A program made the translations under genes and the position numbers. The notes below the pieces were generated by a model. It ran no database searches and was not told the DNA's origin. It saw only the letters and a program-made list of their open reading frames with translations. A stretch of 63,334 nucleotides of DNA, counting the filler, from Deltaproteobacteria bacterium (lineage in GTDB: Bacteria; Myxococcota; JACRCW01), in NCBI GenBank assembly GCA_016218805.1. It is 4 parts of 4 records of this genome, joined end to end, with 100 filler letters (N's around TTAATTAATTAA, not from the genome) between each part and the next. Parts side by side here need not be neighbours in the genome. Positions count along the whole stretch, not along the records: positions 20,989 to 42,838 come from JACRCW010000144.1; 3 more parts are not named here. One strand, written 5' to 3'. This document shows positions 28,453 through 42,838 of this stretch, piece by piece. Numbering within the stretch: the first letter of the stretch is position 1; every line of letters begins with the position of its first letter.

Positions 28453-28486
28453 CTGCACGGCGGTTCAGCTTGAACCGTTGTTCAGT
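28453..28486. promoter_or_regulatory. Two tandem LexA (SOS) boxes upstream of recA
   Basis: CTGCACGGCGGTTCAGC (28453-28469) and TTGAACCGTTGTTCAGT (28470-28486) resemble the Myxococcus LexA consensus CTRHAMRYBYGTTCAGS; the second has an exact GAAC-N4-GTTC core. Confidence 0.8.
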
Positions 28487-28615
28487 GTGCTGTACAGGTG
28501 TGCCCGTGCCACGGCGGCTCCCGCGTTGGGAGCGCTTTCCGAGGGCGAGAAGGGGTTGCACAAGTCCATGCTGACGCAGGAGACCACGCCGTCCAACGGC
28601 ACCAGGATCGCACCG

Positions 28616-29710
<1,095 letters not shown>

Positions 29711-29798
29711 GGGGGACGGACGTTCGAGAGGGAGCGATCCCTCGCGATGGGTGCCGCCACGCGCCGGGATCGCAGCCCCGGCGCGCGGCGGGCCCGGT

Positions 29799-30736
29799 TC
29801 ACCCGGGGGGAGTTCCAGCAGGGCCTGCACCAGCGGGCGGACCAGGTCAGGGTCGCGCATGGCGGTGAGCCAGCGGTCCGGGAGGGCGCGGATGCCGTCC
29901 CGCAGCCCGGCGATGCCGCCCGCTACACACGCGGTGGTGTCGGTGTCATTCCCCAGCGACACGGCGGCGCGCACCGCCGCTTCATAGCCGCGCCCGCTGA
30001 CCGCCCAGCGGGCGCTGTGCAGCGTGTCCACGACGTAACCGCTGCCGCGCGGGGGTTTCTCGCCGGCTGGGAGGATGACGGTGTGCAGCTCGTGGGCAAG
30101 GGCGGGGAGGTCCGCGTACAGCCCGGTGAGCGTGCGGACCGCGTCCTCCCACGGTTCAGGGTGCTCCTGGAGGATGCGGCGGGCCCACAGGCAGTAGAGG
30201 GCGCAGCAGGCCTGGGAGCGCGGGTGGGCGTGGGTGGGCAGGGACTGGCGGTGCGCGTCCAGGGCCAGGTCACGGTCCGTTCCCCGGTGCCAGGCCGCCA
30301 GCGGCAGGACGCGCATCAGGGCCCCGTTGCCGTTGTCCCGCTCGCCGTCCAGGCCGGAGCGCGCGGCCGGCGTGCCGGACCGGAAGCGGGCCAGCGCCTG
30401 GCGCGTGGTGATTCCCACGTCAAACACCAGGCCATCCACCGCCAGGTAGCCGTGCTCCAGCCAGTTGGCCAGGCGCCGGGCCAGGTCCTCCTCGTCCAGC
30501 CGGCCGCAGTGCAACAGCGAATCCAGCAGGCACAGTGCCTGGGCGCCGTCGTCACTCCAAGTGCCGGGGGCGATGCCACCGTGCGAGCGGCGGAACCCCG
30601 TCGGCGGGACCAGGTCGATGCGCTCCACGGAGGGCAGCGCGGACGCCTGCTGGAATTCGTACGGCACACCAACCGCGTCGCCCACCAGCAAGCCCCAGAT
30701 GCCTCCCTCCAGCCGCTCCGCCGTCGACAGCGTCAT
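29799..30736 (-). CDS. ADP-ribosylglycohydrolase (DraG/ARH family); 3' end uncertain, no in-frame stop until 28448
   Basis: GLLVGDAVGVPYEF, GTWSDD, FDVG, NGNGALMR, PTHAH, GNDTDTTACVAG; GAGGG RBS. Confidence 0.88.
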
Positions 30737-30755
30737 GTGAATTCCCTCTTGGGTG

Positions 30756-30776
30756 TTGGTGTTTGTATTACACCAA
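30756..30776. promoter_or_regulatory. 21-bp palindromic operator, NrtR-like (GT-N7-AC)
   Basis: TTGGTGT-TTGTATT-ACACCAA about 20 nt upstream of the ADP-ribosylglycohydrolase start; an AT-rich patch in GC-rich DNA. Confidence 0.7.
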
Positions 30777-30849
30777 TGGGCAGGGCCGGGCAAGCGTGCG
30801 GATCGCCGTGGCGGCCGGTACGTAGGCGACCATGCTGGTGCCGGTGGTG

Positions 30850-31722
30850 ATGGAGGTATCCCGGAGGGCGTTCCTGTCCGGCCTGATGACGGGACTGGGG
30901 CAGGTGATGCTGCCGGCGCCCGGGCGGAGGCTGGAGCCAACATTGTTCCGGGTGAACGTGCCGGTGCGCGGGCTGCCGCGGACGCTGGACGGGCTGCGCA
31001 TTGGGCAGGTTTCAGACACGCACATTGGGGCGGTGCTGGGGGTGGACCACCTGCGGCGCGCGCTGGACCTGTTGCGGCGGGACCCGCCGGAGATCCTGGT
31101 GGCCACCGGGGACCTGGTGGATGACGCGGGGTTGGCGCGGCCGTGCCTGGATGAGTTGGCGTCCATCCGCGCGGGGCTGGGGCGCTTCTACATCCTGGGC
31201 AACCATGAGAACTACGCGGGCCGGGAGCGCATCATTGACGAGGCGATGCGGCACCCGCACGTGCGCCTGCTGCTGGACGCAGGTCACCTGGTCCATGAAG
31301 GCGGCATCCGGGTCCACGTGGCGGGCCTGGACTATCCGCGGGAGGAGGACACGCGGGTGGCCTTCCACGCGTCGCCGTTGCCGCACGTGGTCATCCAGCG
31401 CATCCAGCCGCGGCTCCCGGAGAGGCTGCGGGCCGCCAGCCAGGCGGCGGACGAGGGCGACTTCCGGCTGCGGCTGGTCCACCACCCGGACGCGTGGACG
31501 GCCATGGCGGGGGACGCCGCGGAGCTGACGCTGTCCGGGCACACGCACGGCGGGCAGGTGGCGCCGCTGGGGACCATGCTGGCGCACAGCGCGTTTGCGT
31601 ACGTGCTGGGGATGTATGAACGGCCCGGCCAGCACCTGTACGTGAACGGCGGCACGGGCCACTGGCTGCCGCTGCGCTCCGTGCCCGCCGAGGTCACGTT
31701 GTTGACGCTGCGACGGGTGTGA
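30850..31722 (+). CDS. Calcineurin-like metallophosphoesterase (YkuE/YaeI-like), possible Tat signal
   Basis: SRRAFL; SDTH, TGDLVD, GNHE, HHP, GHTHGGQ. Confidence 0.88.
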   Translation: MEVSRRAFLSGLMTGLGQVMLPAPGRRLEPTLFRVNVPVRGLPRTLDGLRIGQVSDTHIGAVLGVDHLRRALDLLRRDPPEILVATGDLVDDAGLARPCLDELASIRAGLGRFYILGNHENYAGRERIIDEAMRHPHVRLLLDAGHLVHEGGIRVHVAGLDYPREEDTRVAFHASPLPHVVIQRIQPRLPERLRAASQAADEGDFRLRLVHHPDAWTAMAGDAAELTLSGHTHGGQVAPLGTMLAHSAFAYVLGMYERPGQHLYVNGGTGHWLPLRSVPAEVTLLTLRRV

Positions 31723-31743: not shown

Positions 31744-32301
31744 TCAGCAGCCGGTGCCGACGGGGCGGTCCCCACCGCCACCGCTGGGGCGCGACGGGGA
31801 CGCGCAACCGGTGGAAACGGGCCGCGAGGGCGTGGACGGCCGCGAGGGCGCGGGGGACGCGCAACCGGTGGAAACGGGCCGCGAAGGCGTGGACGGCCGT
31901 GAGGGCGCGGGGGACGCGCAACCGGTGGAAACGGGCCGCGAAGGCGCCGGCGAGGAACACCCGGTGGACACCGAGCCACCGTCGTCGGTGGGCTTCTTGG
32001 CCGCCACGTTCAGCAGGCGCGCGGCCAGCGGGGACAGGCGCTTGCGTTCCTCGGTATCCAGCTTGCCGTCGCGGTCCTTGTCCGCGCGCGTGACCTCGGT
32101 GCCAATCTGCTTGAGGGCCTGCTTGAGGCGCGGCACGCTGACCGACGAGGTGCAGCCGGTCTGCAGCGTCTTGGCCAGCTCCTTGAGCCCCTGCTGCTTG
32201 ATGGCGCCGACGTCGACGGAGCCCTTGGGGCCCACCTGCTTCTCAATGCGCTCCAGGGCGCGTTCCACGGGTAACATGCGGGCTTGGGCATTGATCTTCA
32301 T
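31744..32301 (-). CDS. Putative radical-SAM substrate/RiPP precursor with six TGC motifs and an EF-hand-like loop
   Basis: 185 aa (189 if started at ATG 32313, which overlaps the rSAM stop as TGATG); Cys only at QTGC, STGC x4 and the terminal GTGC; DKDRDGKLDTEE. Confidence 0.75.
   Translation of the reverse strand: MKINAQARMLPVERALERIEKQVGPKGSVDVGAIKQQGLKELAKTLQTGCTSSVSVPRLKQALKQIGTEVTRADKDRDGKLDTEERKRLSPLAARLLNVAAKKPTDDGGSVSTGCSSPAPSRPVSTGCASPAPSRPSTPSRPVSTGCASPAPSRPSTPSRPVSTGCASPSRPSGGGGDRPVGTGC
31797..31970. repeat. 57-nt coding tandem repeat (19 aa STGCASPAPSRPSTPSRPV)
   Basis: GCAACCGGTGGAAACGGGCCGCGA recurs at 31804, 31861 and 31918. Confidence 0.92.
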
Positions 32302-32312
32302 GATTCCCCTCA

Positions 32313-33635
32313 TCAGGTGACCACGCGCAGGTGGGGTCTTGTCGACGGTGCCGGCGGGGTCATCCCCGGGCGCGGGGAATAATGGCACCAACCGTCCGGG
32401 TCCGAAAGGCCGCCGCCGACGTGCAGGGCGCGGACGCGGCAGCCGCCACGGCACGTTTCGTAATGGAGGCAGGTGGCGCAGTAGGGGCCGGGGGCGGCCG
32501 CGCGCAGGTCCAGGAACGTGCTGCCGCCCGCCCACAGTTGGGCGAGTGACGACGTCCGCACGTTCCCCGCGATGAAGCTGCCCGGCAGGTTGAGGCACGG
32601 GGTGACGTCCCCCGTGGGGGCAATGCCCAGCACCACGCGGGAGGCCACGCAGCCGAACCCGTCGAAACCGGGGATGCCCTGCTCATGCGGGTGGGGCGCG
32701 TCCAGCGCCAGGCCCAGCGCTTCGGCGCGTGGGCGGGCGGCGTCCACCGCGCGGGCGAACGTGTCGCGGTCACAGGTGAGGCTGTCGTCATGGCGGGCTT
32801 CGCCGGCGGGGTAGGCGGGGCGCAGCAGCAGCACGCGCGCGCCGACGCGGTGGGCCAGCTCCACCAGGCCCGGGGTGGTGGCGGCGTTGTGCGGGGTGAT
32901 GGTGACGTTGAGGTTGAACCCCGGTGGGTAGGCGGTGCGCAGGCGCTCCATGCCGCGCAGCGTGCTGGCAAACGTGCCTTCACCGCGGATGGCGTCGTTG
33001 GTGGCGGGATCCGGACCGTCCAGGCTCACGGCCAGCCCGGCCGGCGGGCAGCGCGCCAGCTCGGACAGCGCCTCGTCACGCAGCAGCGACGCGTTGGTGT
33101 GCACGTAGGCGTCCACCCCCAGCCCATGCGCGTGCCGGACCATGGCGGCGAGGTCCCGGCGGAGGAACGGCTCACCGCCACCCAGCACCAGCTTCATGCA
33201 CCCGGCCGCCGCCAGCTGCCCGGTGAGCGCGCGGATCTCGTCGAGCGTGAGTTCGCCCGGCGCGCGCCGGCCCGAGGAGGAATAGCAGTGCGCGCAGGAG
33301 TAGTTGCACGCCAGCGTCACACCCAGGTGCGCCACCAGCGGCGCGCCGAACGCCCCGGGGACCTCCGGTGGCTCCACCACGCGCCCGGCGAACACCCCGT
33401 CGTCGTCGAGCGCGCCCAGCTCGCGCAGGGTCCGGGCGGTGTCGGTGGCCGTGTCACCGTCGGTGCGGTCGGCGAGCAGCGCCACGGCGGAGTCCGCGCC
33501 GATATCCTGGGCCGCGGTGAGCAGGAACGCCTCGGCGGCGGTGCGGCGCGTGTAGGCGTGCGCGGCGCGGTCATACAGCAGGGGCGGGCCCTGGGCCTCC
33601 ACGCGCAGCGTGAAGGGAAAGGGTGGGGCGCTCAC
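32313..33635 (-). CDS. Radical SAM/SPASM-domain protein with RRE/PqqD-like N-terminus
   Basis: CNYSCAHC (CxxxCxxC), LGGGEPF, VSLDG; 7-Cys SPASM C-x17-C...CATCLHYETCRGGC-x17-C; GTG start overlaps the alr stop (GTGA). Confidence 0.9.
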   Translation of the reverse strand: MSAPPFPFTLRVEAQGPPLLYDRAAHAYTRRTAAEAFLLTAAQDIGADSAVALLADRTDGDTATDTARTLRELGALDDDGVFAGRVVEPPEVPGAFGAPLVAHLGVTLACNYSCAHCYSSSGRRAPGELTLDEIRALTGQLAAAGCMKLVLGGGEPFLRRDLAAMVRHAHGLGVDAYVHTNASLLRDEALSELARCPPAGLAVSLDGPDPATNDAIRGEGTFASTLRGMERLRTAYPPGFNLNVTITPHNAATTPGLVELAHRVGARVLLLRPAYPAGEARHDDSLTCDRDTFARAVDAARPRAEALGLALDAPHPHEQGIPGFDGFGCVASRVVLGIAPTGDVTPCLNLPGSFIAGNVRTSSLAQLWAGGSTFLDLRAAAPGPYCATCLHYETCRGGCRVRALHVGGGLSDPDGWCHYSPRPGMTPPAPSTRPHLRVVT

Positions 33636-34801
33636 GCGCGGGACTCGGGGCCGTTGAGGGTGCTGGTGGCCACCACGCGGCCGCCGCGCAGGTACAGGCG
33701 GGGCACGCGCTCGCGGACCCCGGCCAGGATCTCCCAGGAGATGCTGTCCGCCCACGTGGCCAGGTCATCCGCGTCAATGCGGTCACTGCCCTGCTCACCG
33801 AGCAGGACCACCTCGTCGCCCGCGGAGACGCCCTCAATGTGCGTGACGTCCACCATGCACATGTCCATGGCCACGCGGCCGGCGATGGGCGCGCGTTCGC
33901 CGCGGATGAGCACCTGCGCGCGGCCCGACAGGCGCCGCATCAGCCCGTCCGCGTAGCCGGCCATCACCAGCGCCACGGTGGCGGGCAGCTCCGCGCGCCA
34001 GGTGCGCCCGTAACCCACCGTGGCGCCCGGCGGCAGCGCGCTCACACGCACCACGCGGCTCTTGAGGGAGAGCACACGCTGGAGCGGCACGTCCACGCCG
34101 CAGCGCGGGGCGGGGTGGTAGCCGTACAGACCCAGGCCCGTGCGCACCAGTTCCAAACGCATTTCCGGGTTGTCCAGCACGCTGGCGGTGGCCGCGCAGT
34201 GGCGCAGCGGGATCCACGGCAGGCGCGTGTGCGCGTCCACCAGGCGCTGGAACTGCTGGCGCGTGAAGGTCTTGTCGCCCTCCTCGGCCGCGGCAAAGTG
34301 CGTGAACAGTCCTTCAATGACGATGCGCGGCAGCGCGCGCATGCGCTCCGCGGCCGGTACCAACGTGTCCGGCACCAGGCCGTGGCGGTTGAGCCCCGTC
34401 TCCACCTCCAGGTGCACCGGCTGGTCCACGTTGGCGCGCGCCGCCTCCCGGCTCAGGGCGTCCGCCAGCGCCGGGTCATGCACGCTGGGCGTCAGGGCAT
34501 GCGCCACCACGTCACGCGCCTGGGCTTCCGGCGTGAAGCCCAGCACCAGGATGGGCGCGCGGAGGCCCGCGCGGCGCAGCTGGATGCCCTCGTCCACGCA
34601 GATGACCGCCAGCCGTTCCGCGCCCGCCTGCACCGCCGCGCGCGCCACCTCCACCGCACCGTGGCCGTACGCGTTGGCCTTCACCACCGCGCACAGCCGC
34701 GCGGGCGCGGCGCGTTCGCGCAGCACCGTCACGTTGTGCGCCAGCGCGTCAAGGTCAATCTCCGCCCACACCGGGCGGCCCTGCCATGGGGGGGAGGACA
34801 T
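33632..34801 (-). CDS. alr: Alanine racemase
   Basis: AVVKANAYGHG (PLP lysine), ETGLNRHG, FTHFA, VGYGRTW, GYADG, GRVAMD. Confidence 0.93.
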   Translation of the reverse strand: MSSPPWQGRPVWAEIDLDALAHNVTVLRERAAPARLCAVVKANAYGHGAVEVARAAVQAGAERLAVICVDEGIQLRRAGLRAPILVLGFTPEAQARDVVAHALTPSVHDPALADALSREAARANVDQPVHLEVETGLNRHGLVPDTLVPAAERMRALPRIVIEGLFTHFAAAEEGDKTFTRQQFQRLVDAHTRLPWIPLRHCAATASVLDNPEMRLELVRTGLGLYGYHPAPRCGVDVPLQRVLSLKSRVVRVSALPPGATVGYGRTWRAELPATVALVMAGYADGLMRRLSGRAQVLIRGERAPIAGRVAMDMCMVDVTHIEGVSAGDEVVLLGEQGSDRIDADDLATWADSISWEILAGVRERVPRLYLRGGRVVATSTLNGPESRA

Positions 34802-36436: not shown

Positions 36437-37138
36437 ATGACGCAGGTCCGACTGTACCGTCTCAACAGCATCCCGGAGGTCACGCCGTGGCCCGGCCGGT
36501 GGATGCTGAGCGCCCAAGAAGTGGCCCGCTCCAACCGTTGGCTCAACCCCGCACGCCGCAACGAGTTCCTGTGGGGCCGCGCCCTGATGCGCTACGTGAT
36601 GGCCCAGCACGGGGTTCCCCGCACCGCGCTGAAGTTTGCCCCGGGTGGCAAGCCGTTTCTGGAGGCCGGTGGTGACCTGAACCTGTCCCACGGCGCCGGC
36701 CAGGTCCTGGTGGGCTACTGCCCTGAAGGGTGGCTGGGCGTGGACGTGGAGACCCACGCGCCGCGCGACACGACGCTGATGGAGCGCTTCTTCCACGGCC
36801 ACGAACGCGACTGGATGGGGCAGGACACCGCGCGCCTGCACCGCCTGTGGACGGTGAAGGAGAGCGCGCTCAAGGCGCTGGGCACCGGCGTGTCCGGCAA
36901 CCCCGCGCGTGTGTGGTTTGACCCGGCGGGCGGCGGCATCACCGTGATGGACGCGCCGGTGCCGCAGGCCTGTGATGCCTGGTGGATGGAGGGCGACGGC
37001 TGGACCGCGGCCGCCGTCCACGTGCGGGTGAGCGCGCACGCCCCGCGCGCGCAATGGGAACAGTGCCACCTCACTGCGTCCGACGTGCTGGGTTGGATGG
37101 AGCGCTCGGGCCGGACGGAGGCGAGGGTTCAGGCATGA
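36437..37138 (+). CDS. 4'-phosphopantetheinyl transferase (Sfp type, PfaE-like)
   Basis: GKP, NLSH, GVDVE, WTVKESALKA; GGAGG RBS. Confidence 0.9.
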   Translation: MTQVRLYRLNSIPEVTPWPGRWMLSAQEVARSNRWLNPARRNEFLWGRALMRYVMAQHGVPRTALKFAPGGKPFLEAGGDLNLSHGAGQVLVGYCPEGWLGVDVETHAPRDTTLMERFFHGHERDWMGQDTARLHRLWTVKESALKALGTGVSGNPARVWFDPAGGGITVMDAPVPQACDAWWMEGDGWTAAAVHVRVSAHAPRAQWEQCHLTASDVLGWMERSGRTEARVQA

Positions 37139-38778
37139 CGACGATGGCGGTGGATGGCGCGGCCACGACGACGGGGCGCCGCGCGCTGGGGCGTTGGACC
37201 GGGGATGCGGCGGCGCTGCAGTTCGGCCCGCAGGGACTGGTGAACGCGCTGCAGGCGGTGGACCAGGTGGCGTACTTTGTGGACGCCGGCGGCGAGGTGG
37301 CCGCGGCGCTCTCCGGTGAAGCGCACGTGGGCCGGACCACCGGCGGCGGGCACGCGCTGCTGGGCGTGGTGCCGCCCGTCTCTCCGCAGGCGCTGGGTGA
37401 CCCCGCGTTCCTGCACGTCCATGCGCTTGCCTACCCGTACATGACCGGCGCCATGGCCAACGGCATTGCCAGCGCGGACCTGGTCATTGCTGCGGGGAAG
37501 AACGGCCTGCTGGGCAGCTACGGCGCCGCCGGCCAGCCGCTGGACCGGGTGGAACAGGACGTGGGCCGCATCCAGGCCGCGCTGCCGGGCCTGCCCTACG
37601 CGGTGAACCTCATCCACAGCCCCAATGAGCCTGGCATTGAACAGCGCACCATGGAGCTGTTCATCCGCATGGGCGTGACGACGGTGGAAGCCAGCGCCTA
37701 CCTGGGCCTCACACCCATGATCGTGCAGTACCGGCTCACCGGGCTCACGCGCGGTGCGGACGGGTTTGTCGTGGCCCGGCACCGGGTCATTGCCAAGATC
37801 AGCCGCTCGGAAACCGCGCGGCAGTTCATGGCGCCCGCACCCGAGGCGATGGTGCAGGCGCTGCTCCGGGACGGGAAGATCACCGCCGCGGAGGCGGAGC
37901 TGGCCCGGGACATTGCCGTGGCGGACGACGTGATTGTGGAGGCGGACAGCGGCGGGCACACGGACAACCGCCCGCTGGTGGTGCTGCTGCCCATCATCCT
38001 GCACCTGCGTGACACGCTGGGAACGCGCGGGACCCACGGCTACCCGGTGCGCGTGGGCGCGGCGGGCGGCATCAGCACGCCGGCCTCCGTGGCCAGCGCG
38101 TTCCAGATGGGGGCCGCGTTTGTGGTCACCGGCAGCGTGAACCAGGCGGCCGTGGAAAGCGGTACCAGCGCGCGCGCGCGCCAGATGCTGTGCCAGGCGG
38201 ACATGGCGGACGTGACCATGGCGCCGGCCGCGGACATGTTTGAGATGGGCGTGAAGCTGCAGGTGCTCAAGAAGGGCACCATGTTCGCCATGCGCGCGCA
38301 GAAGCTCCATGACCTGTACCGCGCGCATGATTCGCTGGACGCGATTCCCGCCGACGAGTTGAAGCGGCTGGAGACGCAGGTGTTCAAGCGCAGCGCCGCC
38401 GAGGTGTGGGCGGACACGCAGCGCTACTGGCAGAAGATGGACCCCAAGCAGGTGGACCGTGCGCTGGCCAATCCCAAGCACAAGATGGCGCTGTGCTTCC
38501 GCTGGTACCTGGGGCTGGGCAGCCGCTGGGCCATTGGTGGCGACGACACGCGCGCCATGGACTACCAGGTGTGGTGCGGCCCCGCGATGGGCGCGTTCAA
38601 TGACTGGGTGAAAGGCACGGTGCTGGACCCGCCGGAGGCGCGCCGCACCGTGCAGATTGCCCGCAACCTGCTGGACGGCGCGGCGGCCATCACGCGCGCG
38701 CACGTGGCGCGTTCGCAGGGTGTGCCGGTTCCTGAAGAAGCTTTCCAATTCATTCCCCGCGCCTATCCCGTTGCCTGA
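37135..38778 (+). CDS. pfaD: PUFA synthase enoyl reductase (PfaD/Pfa1)
   Basis: GAMANGIAS, NLIHSP, VEASAY, EADSGGHTD, GAAGGI, APAADMFEMG, FRWY, QVWCGPAMGAFN; ATGA overlap. Confidence 0.93.
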   Translation: MTTMAVDGAATTTGRRALGRWTGDAAALQFGPQGLVNALQAVDQVAYFVDAGGEVAAALSGEAHVGRTTGGGHALLGVVPPVSPQALGDPAFLHVHALAYPYMTGAMANGIASADLVIAAGKNGLLGSYGAAGQPLDRVEQDVGRIQAALPGLPYAVNLIHSPNEPGIEQRTMELFIRMGVTTVEASAYLGLTPMIVQYRLTGLTRGADGFVVARHRVIAKISRSETARQFMAPAPEAMVQALLRDGKITAAEAELARDIAVADDVIVEADSGGHTDNRPLVVLLPIILHLRDTLGTRGTHGYPVRVGAAGGISTPASVASAFQMGAAFVVTGSVNQAAVESGTSARARQMLCQADMADVTMAPAADMFEMGVKLQVLKKGTMFAMRAQKLHDLYRAHDSLDAIPADELKRLETQVFKRSAAEVWADTQRYWQKMDPKQVDRALANPKHKMALCFRWYLGLGSRWAIGGDDTRAMDYQVWCGPAMGAFNDWVKGTVLDPPEARRTVQIARNLLDGAAAITRAHVARSQGVPVPEEAFQFIPRAYPVA

Positions 38779-38791
38779 GGAAACCCGCTTC

Positions 38792-41700
38792 ATGACAACC
38801 AGCTCCGCGAAGTCCTCCCAGGGTGGTACCGCACCGCAGGAAATGTTTGACGCCAACGAGCCCATTGCCATCATTGGCATGGCGGCGCTGTTCCCCAAGG
38901 CGGCGGACCTGGGGCAGTACTGGCGCAACATTGTGAACAAGGAGGATTGCATCAGCGAAGTGCCCGCCACCCACTGGAGCATTGACGACTATTACGACCC
39001 GGACCCCAAGGCGCCGGACAAGACGTACTGCAAGCGGGGCGGGTTCATCCCCGACGTGAAGTTTGACCCCGCGGCGTTTGGCATCCCGCCGCACGTGGTC
39101 AAGGCCACGGACACCGGCCAGTTGCTGGGGCTGCACGTGGCCGCGGCGGCTCTCAAGGACGCGCGCCTGGAAGAAAAGAAGGAATTTGACCGGGACATGT
39201 GCAACGTGATCCTGGGGGTTGGCGGCGGGCAGGAGCAGGGCCGGACGCTGGACAACCGCATCCGCACGCCGGTGTGGCGCCGCACCATGATTGAACAGGG
39301 TGTGGACCCCGCGGTGGCGGACAGCCTGTGCAAGGCGATTGCGGCGCAATTCCCGCAATGGGAGGAGAACAGCTTCCCCGGCCTGCTGGGCAATGTGGTC
39401 AGCGGGCGCATTGCCAACCGCCTCAACCTGGGGGGCACCAACCTCACCGTGGACGCGGCGTGCGCCTCCGGACTGGCCGCCGCGCACACCGCGGTGGCGG
39501 AGCTGCGCGGGCGGCTGGCCAACATCAGCCTCACGGGCGCCGTGGACGCGGACAATGACGTGTTCATGTTCATGTGCTTCTCCAAGACGCCCGCGTTCAG
39601 CGCCTCCAATGAAGCGCGGCCGTTTGACGCCAAGGGCGACGGCATCCTGATTGCCGAGGGCGTGGGCATGTGCGTGCTCAAGCGCCTGGCGGACGCCGAA
39701 CGCGACGGCGACCGCATCTACGCGGTCATCCGCTCCATCGGGACCAGCTCGGACGGGCGCTACAAGTCCATCTACGCGCCCAACCCGGACGGGCAATCCA
39801 AGGCGTTGCACCGCGCGTACACCATGGCGGGTTTTTCGCCGGAGACCGTGGAGCTGGTGGAGGCGCACGGCACCGGGACCAAGGCCGGGGATTTTGCGGA
39901 ATTCTCCGGGCTCAACCGCGCGTTCCGGCAGTACAAGGCGGAAGGCCAGTGGTGCGCGCTGGGCAGCGTCAAGAGCCAGATTGGCCACAGCAAGGGCGTG
40001 GCGGGGATTGCCGGGCTCATCAAGGCGGTGATGGCGGTGCATGAGAAGGTGCTGCCGCCCACCATCAAGGTGACCGAGCCCAACCCGAAGATGGAGATTG
40101 AAAAGACGCCATTCTACCTCAACACCGAGGCGCGGCCGTGGTTCCGTCCCACCGGCAGCCACCCGCGGCGCGCGGGGGTGTCCGCGTTTGGTTTTGGCGG
40201 CACCAACTTCCACTGCGTGTTGGAGGAGTACGTCCAGCCCGCGGGCCAGGAGCCCGCGCTCACCGTGCCCGCGCCCACCGCGCTGTTTGTGCTGGGCGGG
40301 CAGACGGGAACGGACGTGGTCCGCCTGGCGGATGCGCTGGAGGCGGTGCTGCACAAGGACCCGGACGCGTTCCGCCGCGAGGCGCACCGTACGCAGAAGA
40401 CCTCCGTGCGCGGTGAGAAGGCGATTCTCTCCGTTGTGGCGTCGTCCGTGGCGGACCTGTCCGAGAAGCTGGCGCTGGCCCGGCGCCACATTGCCGCCAG
40501 CCCCGAGCAGATCTTCACCCAGGCCGGCGGCGTGTTCTACGGCTGGCGCGTGGACGGGAACGTGGCCCCCAAGGTGGCCGTGCTGTTCCCGGGCCAGGGC
40601 AGCCAGTACGTCAACATGGGCATGCAGTGGGCGCTGCGGTACCCGGAGGTACGCCGCGCGTTTGAAGACGCGGACCGCCTGATGCTGGAGGCGGGCGAAA
40701 CACCGCTCAGCCAGGTGGCGTTCCCGCACCCCACCTTCACCCGGGATTCCGGTGACACCGATGACAAGCGGCTCACCGAGACGCGGTGGGCCCAGCCCGC
40801 GCTGGGCGCGCTGTCCATGGGCCTGTATGACGTGCTGAAGAAACTCGGACTTTCGGCGGATTTCTTTGGTGGGCACAGCTACGGCGAATTGGCCGCATTG
40901 TGGGCGGCGGGCGTGCTGGGGAAGGATGATTTCCTTGCCTTGTCCCGCGCGCGCGGCACGCTGATGGGCCAGGCCGCCAGTGCGCTGGAGCGCTCCGGCA
41001 TGAGTTCCGCGCAGGGTCCCGTGGCCACCATGCAGCACGTGCTCCCGTCACTGAGCCGCGACGTGATTGTGGCGAACATCAACAGCCCGGAACAGTGCGT
41101 CATTGCCGGGCCGGTGGCGGAATTGCAGCGCATCCAGGGCTCCCTGGAAACGCAGGGATTCCTTGTGTCACCGCTCAACGTGTCCGCCGCGTTCCACAGC
41201 CCGTTTGTGGCGGCCGCCAAGGACCCGTTCTCCGCGGCGTTGCGCAAGGCGAGCTTTGGCCACGCGCGCAAACCCGTGTTTTCCAACGTGACGGCCAAGC
41301 CGTACCCGGCCAACGGCGCCGGACGCGACGTGCTGGCGGACCAGTTGGTCAAACCGGTGAACTTCCTGGGCCTGGTGCAGGAGATGTATGACTCCGGCGC
41401 GCGCGTGTTCCTGGAGGTGGGCGCCAAGGGAGTGCTGTCCGGCCTGGTGTCCCGCATCCTGGGCGACAAGCCGCACGCCGCCGTGGCCATGGACGCCTCC
41501 GCGGGCAAGACGCACGGGGACACGGCCATGCAGCTTGCCGTGGCGCAGTTGGTGTCACGCGGTGTGCACCTGGACCTCAACTACCTGGTTGACCGCGACC
41601 CGACCACGGAGCTCAAGCCGCGCGAACCCAACACCGCGACGACCATCACCATTCGCGGCCCGAACCCCAAGGCCAACCCGCCGCCCGCGCCCAAGAACCC

Positions 41701-42838
41701 ACCGCGGATTGGCCTGGTTACCACGACGGGCAGCGCCACGGTGTCCGCACCCGCACCGGCGGTTGCGCCCCCTCCCACGCCCACCGTGTCCGCGGCGCCG
41801 CGGCCCACGCCGCCGCCCCCACCACCGCCGCCCCGCGCGGCGGCCCCGGCCCCAACCACCATCATTCCTTCCATCATCCCCGCGCCGGCCACGGAACGCA
41901 TCACGTCCGTCCCGACGCCCACCGTGCAGGTCATCTCTCCCATGACAAACCCCACCAATCCCCCCAATCCCGCGCTGCTGATGTCCACGCAGGCCGCGCT
42001 TGCCGCGTTCCAGGCGCACCAGCAGCAGATGGCCATGGTGCACCATGAATTCCTGCGCGCGAGCCAGGAGGCGATGCGCACGTTCACCACGCTGTTTGAA
42101 GCGCACGCGCGCCAGATGGCGGGCGCGGGGGTCCCGCAGCTCCCGCCGCCGGCGATGACCACGCCGCCCCCGACGCTGCAGCCCATCACCGTCTACCCCT
42201 CCGTGTACACCCAGGCCGCGCCGGTGGCGGCGCCCCCGCCTCCCGTTGCGCCCGTGGTCACCGCGGCGCCTCCTCCTCCCCCGCGCGTGGTGGCGCCGGC
42301 GCCGGTTTCCATGCCGCCGCCCGCGCCCGTCGTGGCGGCCCGTCCCACACCGCCGCCCCCGCCCGCCCCTCGCCCCGCGGCTGCTGCAGCGGGTCCCGCG
42401 CAGGCGGAGCTTTCCAACGCGCTGCTCTCCGTGGTCAGTGAAAAGACCGGCTATCCGCAGGACATGCTGAAGCTGGACATGGACATGGAAGCGGATTTGG
42501 GAATTGACAGCATCAAGCGCGTGGAGATCCTGGGCGCCATGCAGGCAAAGTTCCCCAACGCGCCCAAGGTGGAGACGGAGAAACTGGGCGAATTGCACAC
42601 GCTGCAGCAGATCCTTGAATACCTGGCCCGCGGTGCCGCGGCGCCGGTGGCCGCCCGTCCCGCGGCTCCGGTGGCCGCCCCCGCCGCGGCGCCGGGCATT
42701 TCCACGTCAGAGATGACGCAGGGACTGCTGGCGGTGGTGAGCGAAAAGACCGGCTATCCCGTGGACATGCTGAAGCTGGAAATGGACATGGAGGCGGACC
42801 TGGGGATTGACAGCATCAAGCGCGTGGAAATCCTGGGC
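38792..42838 (+). CDS. pfaA: PUFA synthase/iterative type I PKS (PfaA/Pfa2-like): KS-MAT-tandem ACP; truncated at contig end
   Basis: KS DAACAS, EAHGTGT, KSQIGH; AT FPGQG, GHSYG, SAAFHS; two ACPs EKTGYP..LGIDSIKRVEIL. Confidence 0.9.

Follow-up and report, generated by a model that had tools for sequence, protein, structure and literature searches.

A predicted two-gene protein-modification cassette: an RRE-bearing radical SAM/SPASM enzyme beside a protein of repeated Thr-Gly-Cys cores, with a Cys/Tyr pair of clades

According to PMC13692751, CrpC of Methanococcus voltae combines a RiPP recognition element (RRE; RiPP, a peptide ribosomally synthesized and then modified post-translationally) with a seven-cysteine SPASM domain that leaves a site open, is encoded beside the multi-cysteine protein CrpA, and cross-links it by thioethers into a modified protein recognized at the level of a domain. 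The same seven-cysteine arrangement is reported for the thioether former CteB in PMC6231123. Here we analyze a locus of comparable layout in a Deltaproteobacteria bacterium (Myxococcota, GenBank assembly GCA_016218805.1), within a stretch of 63,334 nucleotides, termed the window, whose positions 20989-42838 are the contig JACRCW010000144.1. On the minus strand of this contig, the gene of an RRE-bearing radical S-adenosylmethionine (SAM)/SPASM enzyme adjoins a small gene whose product carries six cysteines, each closing a Thr-Gly-Cys (TGC) unit (Table 1). Judged from gene order and motif conservation, the two very probably form a dedicated enzyme-substrate pair, a two-gene protein-modification cassette. 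When compared by description only, CrpA differs from the TGC protein in that its Cys precedes the acceptor, whereas the conservation of TGC cores lies entirely upstream of Cys; moreover, the part of PMC13692751 at hand reports no Tyr counterpart of the kind described below.

The enzyme family and its adjoining multi-core protein

Homologues of the enzyme gene were found at 23 family loci, two of which are 98.7% alike. At 20 of them an adjoining gene on the same strand encodes a protein with 2-6 cores of the form [VIT]-x-[TS]-[GS]-C, located downstream of the enzyme gene in 19 cases (10 of these with a four-base stop/start overlap) and upstream in one. A preliminary description of this DNA had proposed looking beside homologous enzymes for a TGC-repeat neighbor of varying copy number, and such a neighbor is what these 20 loci possess. 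The strict Cys pattern recovers 19 of the 20 Cys-type loci and matches at 4 of 199 distant radical SAM loci used as a control (some of them short or duplicated), where no protein ends in the motif. Reciprocally, five out of 401 phylum genomes contain the substrate type with a folded domain (see below), always adjoining the enzyme. In the source genome each of the two genes is single-copy, and a search for orphan substrates found none besides the adjoining gene.

No third gene is widely common among the 225 genes called at the 23 loci plus the window (crude gene caller, loci of 1-17 kb), hence there is no conserved protease or exporter. Neither was a signal peptide detected among 24 substrate N-termini, whose highest 11-residue hydropathy is 1.13, and together these absences make a modified protein a better fit than released peptides. 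The layout of a classical RiPP precursor is likewise not observed, with cores lying on both sides of a conserved helix. The preliminary description had spoken of a RiPP or protein-modification system: its dedicated pair with a multi-core substrate is supported, and the lack of a conserved protease or transporter and of a signal peptide favors a modified protein over released peptides.

At three loci (L091:9635-10769, L094:9603-11459 and L096:5682-7664) the substrate gene is followed by a second small gene of 88-101 codons, whose product has a basic then Ala-rich start and VNSP/VNS repeats, and then by a gene of ferritin-like type (of two scanned, one matches Rubrerythrin at E 0.07, under the cut-off). 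These two genes are possibly a separate system of a peptide plus a di-iron enzyme.

In gene-like frames of the source genome, 0.62% of 46,838 cysteines stand in a TGC context and 0.41% in [VIT]-x-[TS]-[GS]-C. The TGC context is found for 6/6 cysteines of the query substrate, spaced 65/13/19/19/19 with the last as C-terminal residue, exactly as first described, and for 81 of the 101 cysteines in 25 homologous substrates (20 from loci, the query and four database proteins without DNA context), frequencies that chance does not explain given the genome background. The strict motif holds 90 of the 101 cysteines, and 91 are part of [ST]-G-C, with no TGA codon in the cores. Upstream, V/I/T occupies position -4 in 96 cases, T/S position -2 in 97 and G/S position -1 in 99. 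At +1 we counted G in 51, the chain end in 23, S in 14 and A in 11, Gly being thus the commonest residue of the 78 non-terminal cores. Cys is the terminal residue in 23/25 substrates; of the other two, one is truncated at a contig edge and the second has GCG at its end. Because conservation lies upstream of Cys and the chain so often stops at +1, the chemistry should require no downstream residue, and a core ending at Cys implies that the reaction must involve Cys and upstream residues. The query substrate contains no Tyr.

Overlooked in the preliminary description, residues 1-100 of the substrate form a folded domain in the AlphaFold2 (AF2) model, with a predicted local distance difference test (pLDDT) score of about 90 as compared to about 50 for the tail. 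This domain contains an EF-hand-like loop (residues 74-85) that is probably a Ca2+ site: the Pfam EF-hand match (E 0.03) is under the cut-off, D74, D78 and E85 are invariant in 13/13 domain-bearing substrates, and the loop pattern is present in 23/24. A fold search against 48,161 chains gave no solved fold at Z >= 5, only weak EF-hand and lanmodulin rows, and Atlas matches reach at most 0.80 and serve as leads only. Twelve substrates are devoid of the domain, and 10 of the 12 retain its last helix (LSxxxxxLL/LE) in mid-chain (shuffle p <= 0.033 each), with two cores before the helix and two or three after it. This retention, and the parallel with the substrate helix of binary spliceases, make the helix at residues 89-101 a candidate enzyme-recognition element; the common N-terminal M-x-[IV] strand is an alternative one. 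Remote homologues of the domain show core variants with SCYA, SCAF or SCMS ends, and the core is lost in some. The helical domain also occurs without the loop core (P0145, P0168, P0235) or in tandem (P0145, P0151), and may therefore represent a scaffold of broader use, taken over here as carrier. A lipobox reading of the Cys cores was rejected, as there is no hydrophobic helix.

The enzyme matches the Pfam families Radical_SAM (E 8e-23) and SPASM (E 1e-7), and its AF2 model has a mean pLDDT of 88, with SuiB (first), SkfB, CteB and PqqE as best Foldseek matches. An N-terminal extension of about 75 residues patterned as an RRE had been noted at the outset. It was borne out by the topology of the model, where these 75 residues form three strands followed by three helices, and by the family profile, whose alignments start at position 7 for SkfB (E 5e-35) and at position 5 for SuiB and support an RRE by reaching the N-termini of both. 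The sactisynthase SkfB is, with this E value and RRE included, the best sequence match among solved structures, and, going by its seven SPASM cysteines, the enzyme may have an open site on auxiliary cluster I like CteB. Both SkfB and CteB differ in that identity in Foldseek is only about 17-21%, and the TGC loci have neither the leader/core layout, the cores flanking a central helix instead, nor a conserved protease or exporter. The CxxxCxxC motif and full seven-Cys SPASM domain of the preliminary description were located at residues 110-117 and 329-417. The former is invariant in 51/51 enzymes of the clade with Cys-type partners (the Cys clade) and in all 10 enzymes of the Tyr clade, described below, plus sister enzymes; the seven SPASM cysteines are invariant in 61/61 family sequences. 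The eighth SPASM Cys of MftC (position 336) is found in 0/61 family members versus 6/6 MftC-like outgroup rows. Cys288 is present in 51/51 Cys-clade enzymes and in 3/10 Tyr and sister enzymes.

Among the best 25 of 67 NCBIfam families none reaches its cut-off for the query. MftC (TIGR03962) comes top with 177.5 bits against 265 (179-194 for three sister enzymes), followed by AhbD (139), NirJ2 (129), GeoRSP (126) and PqqE (101). A clustering with cofactor enzymes of the NirJ/Ahb type, which would have spoken against the proposal, was not seen: the AhbD and NirJ2 scores are far below their cut-off of 500, and no haem-gene context exists, no third gene being common to the loci. The three sister enzymes obtain 74-85 bits with the SbtM profile (TIGR04082, cut-off 350) and 63-66 bits with the ACGX profile (TIGR04340, cut-off 400), both outside the query's best 25, and with the splicease profile TIGR03913 (cut-off 592) the query reaches 86 bits and the three 100-113. 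A protein search returned 65 clusters, query included, with at least 47% identity and 298-993 bits, the next match having 198 bits; matches beyond the family are mostly named MftC (among the best 120 of 340). In a midpoint-rooted FastTree of 57 catalytic cores the family forms one clade (support 1.0) that has unnamed enzymes as its sister group (0.98) and stands separate from MftC, one SbtM and 10 splicease-like enzymes, with weak deep nodes; these 10 sit below the TIGR03913 cut-off, and the characterized later-type spliceases are not part of this tree. MftC, although similar at the start of SPASM, thus lies on a separate branch, and the present enzyme differs from it in its fused RRE, its missing eighth Cys, its barrel residues and its multi-core substrate. 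The enzyme occurs in 14/401 genomes of the phylum, the 13 others being DNA already counted, and named close loci come from Myxococcota, 'Deltaproteobacteria' and once 'Pseudomonadota', as metagenome-assembled genomes. Viral contigs yielded 35 loci, none of them close to the family. We regard this compact family as apparently unnamed, going by the similarity searches. In the sister group, one radical SAM/SPASM enzyme (P0078, L018:224-2654) carries a trypsin-like domain (Pfam) as an N-terminal fusion and lies behind a 114-aa gene, which we take to resemble trypsin co-occurring domains.

Tyrosine-bearing partners in the sister clade

A tree of 94 sequences, for which six MftC-like rows served as root, unites the loci that have no Cys substrate (L015, L095 and L100) in one clade with support 0.999. 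Each carries a convergent, Cys-free gene of 304-449 codons on the strand opposite to the enzyme gene, all three belonging to one protein family, with cores such as VNTGYG, INTGYG, VRASYG and VSNSYG. A database search added three proteins, for a total of six Tyr-type partners, and no new locus, so the clade rests on three loci with DNA. For two of the added proteins the length of the longest contig (17,708 and 6,435) coincides with that of Tyr-clade enzymes. Of the 13 YG dipeptides in the six proteins, 12 lie in [VI]-x-x-[GSA]-Y-G. The strict Tyr pattern was found at two of the three Tyr-clade loci and at 0/199 control loci. Motif and gene context suggest that the Tyr-type partner is probably the substrate of the Tyr-clade enzyme.

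Sixteen positions are fixed differently between the two clades. Several side chains are smaller in the Tyr clade, namely at V101A, K148Q and N241A in the barrel and R333H/Q on a SPASM strand, and others are larger, e.g. L151F and A199T. If the strand alternation deduced from the SAM-binding residues of SkfB holds, positions 101, 148 and 241 would face the barrel interior. A third branch of enzymes (P0059, P0065, P0073) combines K148 as in the Cys clade with A101, A241 and H333 as in the Tyr clade. We rejected the idea that the Tyr-type scaffold is a demonstrable homologue of the Cys-type domain, given an hhalign probability of 0.2-0.6% and equally high values in 16/60 column-shuffled controls. 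Directly upstream of the Tyr-type partner lies a gene for a helical protein of about 140-200 residues (L095:10259-10840, L100:10573-11163, and a similar one at L015:6839-7249), with no Pfam match for the one scanned. It could encode a chaperone or a third component of the Tyr clade.

Candidate chemistries of the TGC cores

The likeliest single chemistry, tentative as it is, would be a short Cys thioether ring. It is favored by the seven-Cys SPASM domain without the eighth Cys of MftC, as in CteB and CrpC, and by SkfB as best structure match. In this scheme the RRE, together with the conserved helix LSxxxxxLL, would probably dock the enzyme on the substrate, and each [VIT]-x-[TS]-G-C unit would be processed in turn, including the in-domain and the terminal core. 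Upstream of Cys, the 5'-deoxyadenosyl radical would abstract a hydrogen either from the Thr/Ser in position -2 or from the beta-branched residue in position -4. With the thiol of Cys positioned at the open iron that auxiliary cluster I would offer, a short thioether ring would then close with a change of -2 Da per core. In the sister clade the same carbon radical would couple to the Tyr ring instead. The product would probably remain a multiply modified protein rather than released peptides, and our guess for its role is a multivalent metal-binding or cross-linked intracellular protein.

Several observations weigh against a thioether ring. The seven-Cys, C-x17-C pattern also occurs in most of the 10 splicease-like enzymes examined and is consequently not diagnostic of thioether formation. 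Foldseek places the C-C-forming SuiB first. The open site of auxiliary cluster I could be filled by Cys288, invariant in the Cys clade, or alternatively occupied by a non-Cys ligand. The presumed recognition helix is absent from 2 of the 12 domain-less substrates (L016, L093) and undetectable in the Tyr-clade partners, where a look-alike helix is not significant. Finally, Tyr-Gly is found without exception in the cores of the Tyr clade, and none of them is terminal (12/12), which is the splicease signature, and one SbtM locus has precursor cores S-G-(TGA)-G-G resembling the S/T-G-C-G seen here. These last two likenesses bring in rival chemistries beyond those of the preliminary description.

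One such rival is an SbtM-like oxidation at Cys, in which C-beta would lose a hydrogen, the Gly carbonyl just before Cys would close the ring, and another oxidation step would give a 5-thiooxazole; each core would lose 4 Da and keep a free thiol, making the protein a multivalent soft-metal binder, while benzylic chemistry in the Tyr clade would give an aryl-oxazol(in)e. We hold this to be rather unlikely, even though a near-invariant small residue at -1 and a dispensable +1 residue suit it, Cys and Tyr alike stabilize a C-beta cation or radical, and the top-scoring family, MftC, attacks the C-beta of Tyr. The fetched SbtM locus carries ESG(TGA)GG and KSG(TGA)GG, matching [ST]-G-C-G, where TGA in such SbtA-type cores is presumably read as selenocysteine. 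SbtM removes four H in forming a thio(seleno)oxazole (PMC11002830), and thiooxazole peptides are reported as metal binders. A repeated S-G-C/U-G core and a radical SAM/SPASM enzyme acting on Cys are thus common to both systems. However, the present enzyme is far from SbtM by profile score and branch, the fetched SbtM has eight SPASM cysteines, and SbtA-type precursors combine the TGA codon with a hydrophobic leader that TGC substrates lack. Backbone splicing is suggested by the Tyr clade: its enzymes would excise tyramine at X-Tyr-Gly (-135 Da), and the Cys clade would perform an unprecedented Gly-Cys equivalent leaving ketoamides, plus an alpha-keto acid at the terminal Cys. The YG contexts, always with at least one residue after, the Tyr-clade pocket widened by V101A, K148Q, N241A and R333H/Q, and the SPASM pattern common with splicease-like enzymes fit this idea, as does the statement in PMC11414181 that XYG is a requirement of spliceases, which can depend on a helix in their substrate; helix-based, leader-independent recognition is thereby a further likeness to the spliceases PlpX and RhaX, whose X-Tyr-Gly sites are matched by the sister clade only (12 sites in six proteins). 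Splicing is nonetheless decidedly improbable, for the family is far under the TIGR03913 and TIGR04103 cut-offs and not nested among the 10 splicease-like enzymes, whose neighbors read P/V-x-Y-G-V/I, another context. Furthermore, the query has Cys and not Tyr, and Gly is the commonest +1 residue in Cys cores too, so that the YG of the Tyr clade may be inherited. We know of no Cys splicing. A broader version, in which one scaffold switched its reaction-center residue between Cys and Tyr, the Tyr branch splicing or cyclizing at X-Tyr-Gly and the Cys branch performing a matching backbone chemistry at Gly-Cys, strikes us as unlikely; it would possibly amount to an unreported cysteine splicing (ketoamides, C-terminal alpha-keto acid) on a leaderless protein recognized by a central helix. 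Among splicease-like loci, YG-bearing arrays were seen as five short paralogous genes (L303:2117-3696) and as a (QPMYGV)-repeat gene (L297:2690-3301).

Chemistry that is silent at the side chain or directed to Val/Ile, i.e. epimerization with Cys288 as H donor or cyclopropanation at -4, would reduce Cys or Tyr to a recognition mark. Radical SAM epimerases use a Cys donor and favor Val/Ile, and position -4 is beta-branched in 96/101 Cys cores and V/I in 12/12 Tyr cores. The cyclopropyl synthases TvgB and TigE act on repeated Val/Ile motifs in short cores (PMC9062424, PMC10878394), but their defining GYW motif, given as such in PMC10878394, occurs in 0/84 family sequences, with GFGC instead in 84/84, and the TGC loci also lack a transporter. 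Since Cys288 is absent from 7/10 Tyr and sister enzymes, alr is not conserved and the invariant, usually terminal Cys is left unexplained, such chemistry is very doubtful. That the small protein might be a co-regulated metal- or Ca-binding partner instead of a substrate accords with its EF-hand-like loop and Cys-rich tail. This is highly improbable in view of the RRE-type domain and the strict co-occurrence in both directions, and because unrelated scaffolds keep the motif while its residue swap runs parallel to the enzyme tree. Hardly credible is an MftC-like oxidative decarboxylation of the C-terminal Cys only: MftC is the top-scoring family and 23/25 substrates end in Cys, but identical internal cores exist with no conserved protease to expose them, the Tyr partners are not Tyr-terminal, and the barrel strands and eighth Cys differ from MftC.

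The cassette is real and conserved and, taken with the Cys/Tyr pair, makes up a variant of RRE-SPASM protein modification that apparently has no name yet. The literature searched holds no description of motif or family, subscription papers lying largely outside its scope and published RiPP tables being places where the clusters could be listed; the two supplements of PMC9062424 consulted contain no STGC, RTGC, TGCG, Myxococc or Archangium. With two genes, no apparent helper and a five-residue core that would work at internal, loop and terminal positions, the system is minimal, so its chemistry could be read in one co-expression and might be turned into a protein tag that can be transferred. 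Few active-site positions co-vary between the two members of the natural Cys/Tyr pair, which offers a handle on how SPASM enzymes choose between C-S bond, C-C bond, heterocycle and spliced backbone. Examples in which a RiPP-type enzyme acts on a folded protein are few, and the cassette would be one more.

Gene structure and surroundings of the locus

The coordinates bear out the arrangement first described, three minus-strand genes with overlapping stop/start codons. The alr and enzyme genes overlap by GTGA (33635-33632 region). The TGATG overlap with the enzyme stop uses the first ATG of the small gene (32313, 189 aa), while the second ATG (32301, 185 aa) is preceded by a ribosome-binding-like GAGGGG and agrees with the database gene call; residues are numbered from the latter. 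The coupling of alr to the system, also part of that description, turned out to be local: an alr match is absent from 23/23 family loci, and at 20 of these the upstream sequence is longer than 1.2 kb. We therefore rejected alr as a system component despite its adjacency here, and a contextual argument for epimerization falls away.

Table 1. Features of the TGC cassette (positions in the window)
Feature	Position	Strand	Basis
RRE / radical SAM / SPASM enzyme, 440 aa, GTG start	32313..33635	(-)	Pfam, AF2 and Foldseek
RRE-type domain, enzyme residues ~7-75, three strands then three helices	33411..33617	(-)	model topology and profile alignment
CxxxCxxC motif, Cys110/114/117 (enzyme residues 110-117)	33285..33308	(-)	family alignment
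SPASM domain, seven Cys 329, 347, 386, 389, 395, 399, 417	32385..32651	(-)	family alignment
Cys288 of enzyme	32772-32774	(-)	family alignment
Putative substrate gene, 185 aa, six TGC cores, C-terminal Cys	31744..32301	(-)	open reading frame (ORF) and homologues
Folded helical domain of substrate, residues 1-100, core 1 within loop	32002..32301	(-)	AF2
EF-hand-like 12-residue loop DKDRDGKLDTEE, substrate residues 74-85, putative Ca2+ site	32047..32082	(-)	Pfam sub-threshold match and invariance
Helix LSPLAARLLNVAA, substrate residues 89-101, candidate enzyme-recognition element	31999..32037	(-)	retention in domain-less substrates
Core 1, LQTGC, Cys50	32152..32166	(-)	Cys invariant in 13/13 domain-bearing substrates
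Core 2, VSTGC, Cys115	31957..31971	(-)	sequence
Core 3, VSTGC, Cys128	31918..31932	(-)	sequence
Core 4, VSTGC, Cys147	31861..31875	(-)	sequence
Core 5, VSTGC, Cys166	31804..31818	(-)	sequence
Core 6, VGTGC, C-terminal Cys185	31747..31761	(-)	sequence; Cys-terminal in 23/25 substrates
alr, alanine racemase, adjoining and overlapping enzyme gene, outside conserved system	33632..34801	(-)	Pfam Ala_racemase N and C

In a public run, the small gene of a strain variant shows 12 altered codons, 9 of them synonymous. Two 57-nt repeats of this gene differ at two bases, and the exact core copy number depends on this assembly, as none of the listed contig pieces crosses the repeat region. An ORF on the opposite strand (31754-32320) was rejected, the minus strand having a conserved stop after Cys and a start coupled to the enzyme stop; the synonymous changes cannot exclude this ORF because third codon positions are common to both frames. 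No sigma-70 promoter-like site was found at the locus, and terminator-like sites occur at chance level only. Downstream of the cassette, window 28478-31722 holds recA, an ADP-ribosylglycohydrolase and a metallophosphoesterase, none of which clustered with genes of other family loci. Elsewhere on the contig, window 36437-42838 contains a phosphopantetheinyl transferase and a PfaD-like gene (Pfam) and the start of a PfaA-like synthase (read from the sequence), ended by the contig; by its predicted genes this is a polyunsaturated-fatty-acid-type cluster.

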